Shown: positions 37,624 to 63,587 of the stretch, one piece after another
Layout: each line of letters starts with the position of its first letter
How positions within the stretch are numbered: the stretch's first letter is position 1
NCBI GenBank assembly: GCA_964250295.1
Contig: CAXUEP010000001.1
Span: 60,989 to 124,988, forward strand
Direction: 5' to 3'
Length of the DNA stretch: 64,000 nucleotides
Source of the DNA: an uncultured Mycoplasmatales bacterium
GTDB lineage: Bacteria; Bacillota_I; Bacilli_A; Mycoplasmatales; CGIF01
Translations under genes and position numbers: made by a program
Notes under the pieces: generated by a model
What the model was told of the DNA's origin: nothing
Databases searched by the model: none
The model's input: the letters and a program-made list of their open reading frames with translations, nothing else

Positions 37624-38037
37624 ATGATGAATATTTATAAAAAGATTTTTGCAATCCAAAGTGAGATTGGAAATTTGGTTAAGGATGAGTTGAATAAGTT
37701 TCAGAGGTACCAATACTTTAATGAATACCAGGTTCTAACCAAGTTAAAACCACTCCTTGAAAAGTATGGACTCACATTACTGATGAGTGATGAAAACCAT
37801 GTTCTAGAGTACTCTAGAGAGGAAAAGGAATATCTTGTTAAATATCTAAAAAAGATAAGAATAGTAAATACAGAAACTACTAATGAAGAAAGTATTGATT
37901 TTAACTTCTGGGCAGTTGGTGGAAACACTGACTTGGCAAAAGCGAAGGGTAGTGCAGAAACCTATGCTGTTAAATATTTCCTAAGTAAGTTCTTTCTCAT
38001 TCCAGTGGCTGATCAGCTTGACCCTGATAGATTCTAA
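37624..38037 (+). CDS. ERF-family single-strand annealing protein
   Basis: KDELNKFQRYQY..LKPLLEKYGL and KAKGSAETYAVKYFLSKFFLIP..DPD (ERF signature). Confidence 0.85.
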   Translation: MMNIYKKIFAIQSEIGNLVKDELNKFQRYQYFNEYQVLTKLKPLLEKYGLTLLMSDENHVLEYSREEKEYLVKYLKKIRIVNTETTNEESIDFNFWAVGGNTDLAKAKGSAETYAVKYFLSKFFLIPVADQLDPDRF

Positions 38038-38247
38038 CTAGACAACTAAAAAGTTTTTTGAAGTTCTGGTTTAAGGAAGGCCGAATGTAAACGGCAGTAA
38101 AGCCCCTACCGGTATTCGCAGAGCTGCAAGCAGAAAGCCAAAAACCATTCAGTGGTACAATTTTTAAAATTGACAAACCCAGAAGAAAATGTAAGTATTA
38201 CTTCCAGGGGTTTTATATAATATTACTTCCTAACTAACTAGAAAAAA

Positions 38248-38907
38248 CTACCTTCTGCTCTTTAGTTTCTTTTCTTCCCTTAGTTTACGCTTATTAAGAT
38301 AGATTAACAGACTTCGTGGTTTTCCTATTTCAATAATCCTGCTGATATCGAGTACTGAGATCTTCTTAGAAAGTAAAAGCAGAATCTGTTCCTTCTTGCT
38401 ATCATATATCGAATGCTGAATTGTTCCCCTGGCTTTTCCTATACTTCCTCCCTGCTTCTTCCTGACTAAGAGTACCTCTCTAACCCGTAGGGAGGTAATA
38501 TCCTTTTCCAGTGAGGTTAGCATCGAGAAAAGTGTCAGAACTTTCTTACTCTCAGTAGCTAAGTCTAAACTAAAATCTTGTTTAGTAAAGATAATTCTTA
38601 CTCTGTTTCTGAGGAGTTGGTTAACTAGTCCTATAGTCTCTGAAGTTGACCTTCCCAGTCTTGAAATTTCGCTGGAAACTAGAATACTACCTTCTGGGGT
38701 ACTAAATAACCCTTCAATTCTTTTCCGGTCTAGGGATTTGTCGGTGGAGATTTCCACTTCAATTCATTTATCAATGTTAAGTTCACGTGTTCGGCAGTAC
38801 TCGAGAATTTCTAGTTTCTGGTTCACTACAACTTGTTCATCATTTGAAGTCCTAATATAGCCAATTGTTAATGACTTTGCGGTTCTGTTTTTTTTAATTT
38901 TGTTCAT
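38248..38907 (-). CDS. Serine recombinase (resolvase/invertase family), copy 1
   Basis: N-terminus via TGA readthrough: GYIRTSNDEQ; SEISRLGRS; C-terminal HTH-like region. Confidence 0.85.
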
Positions 38908-39023
38908 TTTCCCGGTGCACAGTTTCTATGCTAGAGTTTTACTTGTTTATTTTAAATTCTTACTGAGTAGTTTGAAGCAGTAAAGATTCGGAAGTAAATG
39001 ATAAATACAAAACTTTATGCTAA

Positions 39024-39066
39024 CTAAACCCCTTTGGTTTGTTGTTTAACAAAAAGAGGGGTTTAG
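39024..39066. repeat. Inverted repeat in inter-recombinase spacer
   Basis: CTAAACCCCT ... AGGGGTTTAG perfect 10-bp arms. Confidence 0.7.
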
Positions 39067-39735
39067 AGTATTCTCCAAATTTAAACTCAGAATCCAAAGA
39101 TTAGTGAAGCACTAGTGTACTGTGTACTTTTTAAGGTGTATTAGTGTACATATAGAAGTTTACAAAATGCCCATTTAAACAGCAAAAACTATATAAACAT
39201 CAACATGGTCATTTTTTTTAAAATAGTGATGTCTTCACTCTGAACAATGTTTTTTACTAGAGAGTTACTAGCTAGTTAGTCACCTTTGTATAACTGTTTA
39301 TTAAGGATAAATGGAAGTCGTTTTATAGGTAGTGTCATTCTTAGCTCTTTAAATTCAAAAGACTCCCTCTAACTTACTAAAAAGAAACAAACTAACTTTT
39401 TTTAATAAAAGAGTCAACCAGTGAACCACACCGGGTGGTTTTTGTAAATACTCCGGTTCACTAAGGAGTGAAAAAGTCAGTGGGGAAGAACATGCACTAA
39501 CTATCTACTACTACTAAGTAATTTAAGTTTATGGTTTAAGTATGTATGTAAGTTTTGATCTTTTAGCTTAGTATAAATCAAAACTGCCCCTTAGAATGAT
39601 TGAATAGTTGCTTCTTTAGATATTTTGTATATAAACAAAAAAAGAATTCATTTAGAAGCACTTTTTTCCAGAAAATTATTAATGATAAGCAAGTGTGGTT
39701 ATTCGGTAGCTTTTTGCTGGTGTTATCCTCAGTAC

Positions 39736-40410
39736 CTAATGAGGATTATAGAGTTGTTTTTTTAAAAAACCCCTTTTTGCTAAGTATACTGAGAGCGACC
39801 TGGTTTTCCCTTCACCAATTAACCTAATGATTGAAGGTAGTGAAATGTCCGCTGTGAGGTATTTACTGATCTCTGGTAAGTGTCTATCATAGATAGACTT
39901 ATGAAGACTTCCTGTTCTTCTCCCACCAATTCTTCCCTCTGAACGTGCAGCAAGTAGCCCTTCTCTTGTACGAATTGAAATTAGATCTCTTTCCAGGCGG
40001 GCCATTACTGAAAACATCCCAATTTGCATGTTTAGGTTAGCCTGGGCATATGGATCACTACGACGGGCGGTGTCTATTCCGTTGTTAATCAGAATAATTC
40101 TTACTTTCTTCCTTAGCAAATTATCTACAAACTGAACAACTTCTGCTAGGTTCCTCCCTAATCTTGATAACTCAACGGCAATTAGCACATCACCGACTAC
40201 TAGTTCATCTTCCAGTTCCTTCATTTTCCGTAAAACCATTGATTTGCGGGAACTCATTTCAACTTCTAAATAGAGGTCAACTTCTAGTTTATTTGCTTTC
40301 ACGTAGTTTGTAATCTCATGTCGCTGTGACTTTAAGTCCTGGTAAGCAGTGGAGACCCGTAGGTAAGCAATTGTTCTAGATTTCTTTTGTTTGTTCTTGT
40401 CAGTAGTCAT
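39736..40410 (-). CDS. Serine recombinase (resolvase/invertase family), copy 2
   Basis: AYLRVST, ELSRLGRN, LERDLISIRTREGL, GGR. Confidence 0.92.
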   Translation of the reverse strand: MTTDKNKQKKSRTIAYLRVSTAYQDLKSQRHEITNYVKANKLEVDLYLEVEMSSRKSMVLRKMKELEDELVVGDVLIAVELSRLGRNLAEVVQFVDNLLRKKVRIILINNGIDTARRSDPYAQANLNMQIGMFSVMARLERDLISIRTREGLLAARSEGRIGGRRTGSLHKSIYDRHLPEISKYLTADISLPSIIRLIGEGKTRSLSVYLAKRGFLKKQLYNPH

Positions 40411-62955: not shown

Positions 62956-63587
62956 CTAGTGGTTTAACAAGTTTAGCTTGGCGAGTTCGGCTAAGCCAGA
63001 GTCTTTAATATAGAGGGCCGTCGTGGAAAGCTTGCGGTGGCCTAGTAAAGCTTGCAGGTTAGGTAAGTTGATACCGTTCAGTGCATTATGGGTTGCAAAA
63101 CAACGGCGGAGGGTGTGGGGAGCTAGTTCTAACTTTGCCGGTCATTGCAGTTGATGCTTTAAGTTCCTTAGAAAGTTAAAAAAACTGTTCCGCCGTGTTT
63201 TGTTTTGCTGCCACCTCGCACGCTGCAAATAATTAATTGTTACTTGGTCAACTGGTACTCAACGATCCTGTTGGCCCTTCCCACGGATTAAATAAAACTG
63301 GGAAAATTGCTCCTCAGAATGTTGTAAGCGGGGATCAAAGGTAATTGCCTCGCTAACCCGCAAGCCAGAGCGTCAACAGAGCAGGAACAAACATTTACGG
63401 AGTTGGAGGTTAGTCTCCGCTTTTTTATTTTTCCGTGCTTCAAGAAATTTCCGAGCAGCAGTAATTTGCTGTGGTTATGGAAGAACTTATCCGGAAGGTT
63501 ACTAGGCTTGTCCAAGTTGTACTGCTGCAAAAGAGGGTGGTGCTTTTGCTTTCCTAGTAAAGTAACTGCTTAGTTTTCTTGCATCAT
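62956..63587 (-). pseudogene. Short XerD-like tyrosine recombinase, disrupted
   Basis: SGLRVSEA, IRGKG, PHTLRRCFAT, LLGH..STTALY intact; TAA at 63570-63572 and frame break/TAA near 63475. Confidence 0.8.

Follow-up and report, generated by a model that had tools for sequence, protein, structure and literature searches.

To our knowledge, all described chromosome-dimer systems use tyrosine recombinases, as in XerCD/dif, XerS/difSL and XerH/difH. Resolvase/res systems, which employ serine recombinases, work on large plasmids, and the chromosomes of Mollicutes-related fungal endobacteria (MRE) are of large-plasmid size. The res layout comprises a crossover site and accessory subsites (PMC9943657), while the Mpi recombinase inverts 13 regions in Bacteroides fragilis (PMC4747536). 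As for chromosomes, Tn3 res/resolvase failed to replace dif in E. coli, small endosymbiont genomes are often without a dimer system, and the way in which RecA-positive bacteria manage in the absence of Xer is given as an open question (PMC2731167). Linnemannia symbionts are without XerC/D, and the smallest genome in the same paper is of 327-kb (PMC10507103), a text in which a search for 'invertase' returned no occurrence.

The window analysed here, a stretch of 64,000 nucleotides, corresponds to C1:60,989-124,988 of an assembly (label G000) whose two contigs, C1 and C2, total 224,622 bp, from a MRE that uses code 4. Given that C1 and C2 overlap by 55 bp and that both free ends lie within the rRNA operon, ordered as in G003, the G000 chromosome very probably forms a ~ 228-kb circle, interrupted by a single gap within the rRNA operon, and is smaller than the 327-kb minimum of PMC10507103. 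The genus mates G003 (326,911 bp), G004 (402,237 bp) and G001 (615,212 bp) were used for comparison, and 169 of the 205 G000 ORFs are core, with reciprocal best matches in G003. On C2 (L085:7276-8293) the 23S rRNA match does not extend past model position 2656; the ~ 1 kb that follows contains a 170-aa ORF together with group-I-intron-like sequence. A 1,562-aa ORF (G000:C1:159955-164643), an apparent GyrB-GyrA fusion common to G003 and G004, carries the sole GyrA/ParC domain, and no second type II topoisomerase A subunit was found in G000.

The locus under study contains two recombinase genes, SR_A and SR_B, in the following setting (window coordinates):

38038-38247, no strand: gap in which ERF (+) and SR_A (-) converge, with a terminator-like hairpin at 38092-38111
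38248-38907, minus strand: SR_A, small serine recombinase, 219 aa, motif YIRTS, Pfam Resolvase 71 bits
38908-39735, no strand: non-coding spacer of 828 bp upstream of SR_A, the longest ORF-free gap of C1 and unique in the genome
39736-40410, minus strand: SR_B, plasmid-clade small serine recombinase, 224 aa, motif YLRVS, Pfam Resolvase 102 bits
40451-41569, minus strand: prfA, last gene of a nusA-infB-rbfA-CBS-prfA block
62956-63390, minus strand: short tyrosine recombinase, catalytic-only, of mobile MRE type, 5' end damaged

With scores well over the Pfam Resolvase cut-off of 23.3 bits, a length of ~ 200 aa and a C-terminal DNA-binding domain whose helices are conserved, both proteins are small serine recombinases, and they are the only PF00239 matches in the whole G000 genome. 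Their PDB matches are Gin, gamma-delta, Tn3 and Sin, and they are 36% identical to each other. The sequence-only reading, made before these analyses, had described two intact resolvase genes with the catalytic serine, no transposase or cargo, and prfA adjacent, and all of this was borne out. Indeed, both frames are open (that of SR_A requires TGA = Trp once), the interval between them contains no ORF for a transposase or cargo, and SR_B starts 40 bp past the prfA stop, with no terminator predicted when this gap was scanned. Furthermore, no mobile genes flank the pair in G000, and direct or long inverted repeats around it occur at chance level only. The polarity switch that had been noticed is real as well, since it coincides with the whole-contig maxima of cumulative G-C (window 38,102) and cumulative gene orientation (window 38,037) on C1. 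The pair stands beside this switch as had been said, but the switch is the ERF/SR_A gap and not the spacer, and the two genes run in tandem on the minus strand.

The two genes had been called paralogues, a label that turns out to be misleading. SR_A has seven MRE orthologues of 58-67% identity, which are single genes usually followed by nusA-infB-rbfA, are tied to nusA-infB in G003, G004, L074 and L075, and are single-copy in three complete relatives. The nusA-infB-rbfA-CBS-prfA block is found upstream of SR in G000 and downstream of it in the relatives. Between G003 and G004 the orthologue shows 82% identity, compared to a core median of 72%. Among 249 genomes from the order, 4 carry the recombinase family, and all of these belong to the host genus; G002 has no SR_A orthologue, and the homologue of G001 sits among tyrosine-recombinase islands. 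In the tree, SR_A falls inside a chromosomal MRE clade (96/89), while SR_B and P0002 form a sister pair (100/100) away from that clade. P0002, of 67% identity, is the closest relative of SR_B, with no other close one found and none confirmed in the metagenome scan. The P0002 contig closes, by a 141-bp terminal overlap, into a 6,149-bp circle without core genes, probably a MRE plasmid. Besides the resolvase gene, this code-4 circle (L071/L072) carries a coiled-coil ORF of 458 aa that has homologues in G004, a 398-aa ORF without Pfam match and a small one whose homologues occur on all three chromosomes, and 1.5 kb of it is non-coding. The GC3 of SR_B (0.35) matches that of the core (0.335 ± 0.033), which points to a long resident rather than a recent arrival. 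Given the different clades and the plasmid-borne sister of SR_B, the phylogeny indicates that SR_A and SR_B are not duplicates: the pair consists of an ancestral gene and a later xenologue from a plasmid clade. Conservation across relatives, a point raised for the pair, applies to SR_A, which is lineage-wide, single-copy and mostly nusA-linked, but not to SR_B, no relative having the pair.

Within the spacer, the following elements were distinguished:

39024-39066, no strand: best spacer dyad, 11/12 pairs with a 19-nt loop, not conserved in relatives
39114-39149, minus strand: putative accessory subsite II, four GTGTAY/RTACAC repeats
39156-39185, minus strand: putative crossover site I, core AAATG-GG-CATTT at 39165-39176, left arm diverged
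39331-39343, minus strand: upstream half-site TAAGAATGACACT, conserved in relatives

The dyad richness first ascribed to the spacer is marginal: against 200 dinucleotide shuffles, five settings gave p = 0.47, 0.43, 0.91, 0.02 and 0.025, from counts in which some dyads were scored twice, and several other intergenic regions equal it. A structured RNA was also considered and rejected, no Rfam family scoring above cut-off in the 828 bp. The spacer does hold a diverged copy of a non-coding element conserved upstream of the SR_A orthologue in G003, G004, L074, L078 and L122. In these relatives, a lone half-site ending in AAGAATGACACT is followed after ~ 197 bp by a ~ 30-bp dyad, which begins with TGTCAT and has the core AAAMCG-NN-CGKTTT, then by a middle subsite and finally by a dyad of 36 bp, TG...GACA, this three-part res-like site being 108-110 bp long in all. 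The half-site TAAGAATGACACT occurs exactly once in each of G000, G003, G004, L074 and L078, at 435-563 bp upstream of the SR_A orthologue. Its 12-mer AAGAATGACACT, exact in the window at 39331-39342, occurs once per genome, and no other 828-bp window of G000 contains any 12-mer common to four relatives. A HMM built from four relatives, with G000 left out, found its best G000 match at 39172-39114, on the expected strand and at the expected place, with an E of 0.073. Whole-spacer alignments with the relatives were not significant. The resolvase genes of L071, L119 and L124 also have the CG-NN-CG core upstream, at distances of 80, 90 and 123 bp, which supports it as the crossover of the clade. 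A metagenome motif scan recovered L122 as a true locus, along with a match in L123 that is due to chance; the site was not detected upstream of the SR_A orthologue in L075 and L079, and there is none at the G001 homologue. In the G003 lineage (L078:4000-4620, L074, L011) an outer inverted repeat, its copies ~ 580 bp apart, encloses the whole res-like region; it is a perfect 22 bp in L078 and is not seen in this window.

In G000 the site has diverged, its left arm and third subsite being no longer recognisable. The crossover core aligns in register with that of the relatives, both CG are changed while the palindrome is kept, and the TGTCAT half-site of the left arm is lost. Palindromes of this type number two in G000, the other being inside a gene at C1 210.9 kb. 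The putative subsite II is the top genome match of a subsite-II matrix derived from the relatives, and its GTGTAY/RTACAC cluster is the densest in the genome on a post hoc count. The core change may reflect co-evolution or plain CpG decay, the latter being considered because the genome is CpG-poor (ratio 0.48). A hybrid site created by plasmid integration at the crossover was considered and rejected, since SR_B and the crossover are separated by the upstream half-site, which is chromosomal.

These features bear on an arrangement in which both proteins are obligately required, as XerC + XerD are, for example with SR_B at the crossover and SR_A at the accessory subsites. The genes are adjacent, both intact and both long resident, and the crossover has lost TGTCAT on its left arm while SR_A-type accessory motifs remained. 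The hexamer TTCACT, of which two copies precede the plasmid resolvase gene, reaches its highest density in the genome within the spacer, a post hoc and weak observation that would fit the same arrangement. On the other hand, no relative has the pair and one gene suffices in G003, G004, L074, L075, L078 and L079; the two catalytic domains, from different clades, are 35% identical; and the plasmid (P0002) upstream region aligns with the spacer no better than with shuffles. We consider this arrangement improbable, and the two-subunit system proposed from the sequence at first sight gives way to relatives with one gene and a SR_B that is a plasmid-clade xenologue.

Two solo copies of the site are present in G004 (L051:785-915 and L051:15512-15642), amid accessory genes near the terminus. 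Lying 12 and 27 kb away from the SR-linked site, they could belong to a mobile-element relic and integration hotspot that serves incoming elements, by capture or by cointegrate resolution. The closeness to the terminus would then result from accessory DNA gathering there, the terminal regions of G003 and G004 holding 100+ kb of accessory genes, and SR_B would be the stump of one integration. The circular home of the SR_B sister and the G001 homologue, among its islands and without a site, agree with this explanation. We nevertheless judge it unlikely, although the least so among the alternatives, as the SR_A orthologues are single-copy, syntenic with the core and better conserved than the average core gene, and the G000 pair has no mobile flanks and a SR_B of core-like GC3 that appears long resident.

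In order to locate the terminus, fourfold-degenerate sites were used instead of raw GC skew, since the latter mostly tracks gene orientation in G000. At these sites T is in excess in genes on the leading strand (+0.14 to +0.4) but not in those on the lagging strand, and origin and terminus were obtained from joint likelihood fits of this bias in G000, G003 and G004. The fitted origin adjoins the rRNA operon in all three genomes; an origin at the C1 17.6 kb gene divergence was replaced, because free fits point to the rRNA operon side. A very AT-rich 250-bp tract at C1 2.0-2.3 kb (L086:2010-2260), flanked by alternating purine-pyrimidine runs, lies within the fitted origin interval and is a candidate DnaA-independent origin.

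In G003 the fitted terminus is at 280.5-283.5 kb and the site at 280.9 kb, 7 kb off the origin antipode; in G004 the terminus is fitted at 390.5-391.5 kb and the site is at 390.95 kb, 9 kb off the antipode. Gene bootstraps fall within 3 kb in 71% of cases for G003 and 48% for G004. The G003 terminus stands with core genes only, and removal of the SR-rbfA block widens its interval to 243.5-283.5 kb with the site still inside. The G004 terminus is not robust: with core genes alone it is placed at 25.5 kb, the log-likelihood at the site being -2.7, or -13 without SR. In L074 and L078 the T-over-A bias falls across the site, from 0.37 and 0.24 at polC to -0.14 to 0.04, these two and G003 being close kin that share the informative genes. 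For G003 and G004 a single sharp switch gives a poorer fit than a broad mixed zone, and G001 gave no usable replichore signal.

For G000, a single switch is best placed at C1 134.5-135.5 kb, some 35 kb away from the site (site log-likelihood -25), and a better model is a bias-free zone from C1 101.5 to 136.5 kb, centred near the antipode, with the SR pair and site as its left edge. The cumulative GC-skew peak sought at the locus is there, and gene orientation and GC skew do flip ~ 1 kb from the site, but this skew is mostly gene orientation and the synonymous-site switch lies near C1 135 kb. By gene order, the G000 site still joins the polC-secA side to the rest. In the bias-free zone (window 40500-64000 and beyond) genes of neither strand show synonymous bias, which forks meeting at variable points, or an earlier inversion, might account for. 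The two ERF genes of G000 (window 37624-38037 and C1:135453-135863), both on the plus strand, are at the edges of this zone. Altogether, one lineage links site and terminus well and a second does so plausibly, while in G000 the link is ambiguous.

An invertase pair that produced the polarity switch had been offered as the second option; here, one or more Mpi-like invertases that did so, or that still flip a segment, were considered. Mpi is the closest named family, the 35-kb bias-free zone starting from the pair could be a flipped segment, and the G004 solo sites are inverted relative to the SR-linked site. Their central dinucleotides are AC and CG, however, versus GG, and unlike central dinucleotides would block rejoining by serine recombinases. 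No second crossover site or inversion partner was found in G000, including near the 136.5 kb zone edge, the only other core palindrome being the intragenic one. Moreover, upstream half-site, core, subsite II and SR_A keep their ancestral order, so that elements on both sides of the putative crossover show no breakpoint there, and multi-subsite res sites select against inversion (PMC9943657). An invertase origin of the switch is in our view very improbable, the least likely of the explanations considered.

The cell context was examined next to the only tyrosine recombinase of the window, previously described as a pseudogene. Its 5' end is indeed damaged, with in-frame TAA stops within the ~ 20 N-terminal codons kept by short MRE relatives and no ATG, but under code 4 the catalytic core is intact, in an open 172-codon frame with three internal TGA = Trp and a complete R-K-HxxR-H-Y set. 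With scores of 69-70 versus XerC/XerD cut-offs of 330-335 and a missing N-terminal domain, it is by these measures not a XerC/XerD orthologue. Tyrosine recombinases are altogether absent from G003 and G004, two relatives that carry the SR_A orthologue. As for FtsK, no PF01580 match was obtained in G000 and none over cut-off in the genus, and neither DnaA nor FtsZ scored above cut-off in the five genus genomes (G000-G004); three genus genomes without DnaA above cut-off still show clear replichores. All five contain recA, so that chromosome dimers can form.

In the proteins themselves, Y6, R8, S10, R68 and R71 (Tn3 numbering) are invariant in SR_A, SR_B and 14 homologues, and the equivalents of Q14, Q19, E118 and R125 are also intact in both. 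Thus 5/6 of the catalytic residues listed for Tn3 resolvase (PMC2794168) are retained, the exception being D36, which is not conserved anywhere in the clade; its position is mostly hydrophobic clade-wide, with an invariant Glu one residue before. The distribution of constraint is unusual in SR_A, with 80-82% identity in the HTH versus 57-59% in the catalytic domain. This reversed pattern is common to SR_A and its sister P0122 (DNA-binding domain 80-91%, rest 54-64%) compared to the other orthologues (68-77% and 78-91% respectively; Fisher p 0.007-0.015 vs P0124), while SR_B has the normal one. In addition, SR_A has twelve altered near-invariant positions and a 4-residue deletion, the changes including probable R45 -> Lys, R119 -> Lys and T126 -> Val. 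In Tn3 resolvase, R45 -> Lys abolished in vivo resolution (PMC2794168). SR_A may therefore be a weakened enzyme.

Carried further, these changes would make of SR_A a DNA-binding protein that is no longer a recombinase, such as a terminus organiser, a fork barrier or a self-repressor. On plasmid pAM-beta-1, for instance, a res-bound resolvase blocks a polymerase. The contrast between an HTH of 80-91% and a catalytic domain of 57-64% in SR_A/P0122, the altered positions with the deletion, and a sharp composition step at the site in G003/L074, which fits a fork stop, are what such a protein would predict. Against it, all nine catalytic equivalents from Y6 to R125 named above are intact, R119K is tolerated in Tn3 resolvase (PMC2794168), and the bias-free zone beyond the G000 site argues against a tight barrier. 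We regard a purely binding role as rather unlikely, somewhat more so than the hotspot.

The genes, their separate origins, the conserved site and its position are established by sequence analysis, whereas any recombination at the locus, the dimer role and any division of labour are inferences. Our preferred reading, to which we give a probability of roughly 0.45, is that of a domesticated resolvase/res module that resolves chromosome dimers, with a plasmid resolvase, SR_B, beside it. SR_A and the res-like site would be of mobile-element origin, fixed on the chromosome by a MRE ancestor, and the module, at or near the junction of the replication arms, would convert RecA-made dimers to monomers as resolvase/res does in large plasmids, in cells without XerCD, FtsK and FtsZ. 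By analogy with Tn3/gamma-delta, recombinase dimers would occupy the crossover site and accessory subsites, the two directly repeated copies on a chromosome dimer would synapse, four serines would cleave at the central dinucleotide (predicted in the window at 39170-39171, leaving a 2-nt 3' overhang) with rotation of subunits, and gyrase would unlink the resulting catenane. SR_B would have been acquired later from a small plasmid family with the same crossover core. Since SR_A is conserved in its DNA-binding domain but has drifted in its catalytic one, SR_B may now provide catalysis or serve as a reserve for it. The more general proposal, that a serine resolvase and a terminus res provide Xer/FtsK-independent dimer resolution in plasmid-sized MRE chromosomes, the captured resolvase perhaps taking over catalysis, is one that we advance tentatively, at somewhat less than even odds. 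Points against the dimer module are that a plasmid-type res need not be at a terminus, that Tn3 res/resolvase failed in place of dif and many small endosymbionts do without any such system (PMC2731167), that the G000 site is diverged and 35 kb from the best single switch, that L075 and L079 have the gene but no site upstream of it, and that G002 has no such gene. Of the XerCD/dif analogue first imagined, what survives is one gene, SR_A, with a res-like site, and not two subunits; its domesticated role near a terminus gains support from the single-copy SR_A of the relatives, two of which are devoid of tyrosine recombinases, from the persistence of SR_A in a ~ 228-kb genome composed mostly of core ORFs, and from the site at the inferred G003 terminus.

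A defined gene and a defined ~ 110-bp site make the question testable in E. coli even though MRE are unculturable. Should there be no resolution activity, the locus would be a conserved mobile-element relic of modest interest. Should the proposal be true, the CG-NN-CG core common to Mpi-like enzymes would mean that one clade serves as invertase, plasmid resolvase and chromosome-maintenance enzyme.

Compared to known systems, SR_A and SR_B are, by the tests run, small serine recombinases that belong to neither the Mpi nor the Xer family. Like staphylococcal CcrA/CcrB, they are encoded by two adjacent divergent serine recombinase genes, with weak model matches, but CcrA/CcrB are large serine recombinases of ~ 450-540 aa that excise a cassette, whereas the SR proteins have ~ 220 aa and flank no cassette. 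The Mpi model NF009949 is their best full-length NCBIfam match, at 115.4 and 109.5 bits, far below its cut-off of 272. The MRE crossover core resembles the Mpi inverted-repeat core. A PSA primer ends in such a motif, CG-AA-CG (bioRxiv 2023.03.31.535104). Unlike Mpi, no inverted-repeat pairs around promoters were found in G000, and the MRE site has accessory subsites. With Tn3/gamma-delta and the plasmid multimer-resolution enzymes Sin and beta they share the small size and C-terminal HTH. As with Tn3/gamma-delta res, the SR_A orthologues of G003, G004, L074, L078 and L122 are placed directly downstream of a ~ 110-bp site made of a crossover dyad and subsites of differing length, which in G000 is diverged. 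Unlike Tn3/gamma-delta, SR_A is chromosomal, single-copy and syntenic with the core, without transposase or replicon, the MRE crossover is about 30 bp with a CG-NN-CG core, and the SR clade has S for D67 and G40 and no Asp at 36. The Xer systems differ from the locus by tyrosine rather than serine chemistry and by FtsK/FtsZ, over cut-off nowhere in the genus, and XerC/XerD are ancient co-inherited paralogues, which SR_A and SR_B are not. Like the targets of XerCD, XerS and XerH, the site is non-coding, palindromic, low in GC, single-copy and, as indicated above all by G003, near the terminus, and like XerS and XerH one recombinase gene is linked to it. On a chromosome among the smallest known, a plasmid-type unlinking enzyme and its target would then be retained roughly where replication ends, possibly for the job that XerCD/dif does elsewhere.
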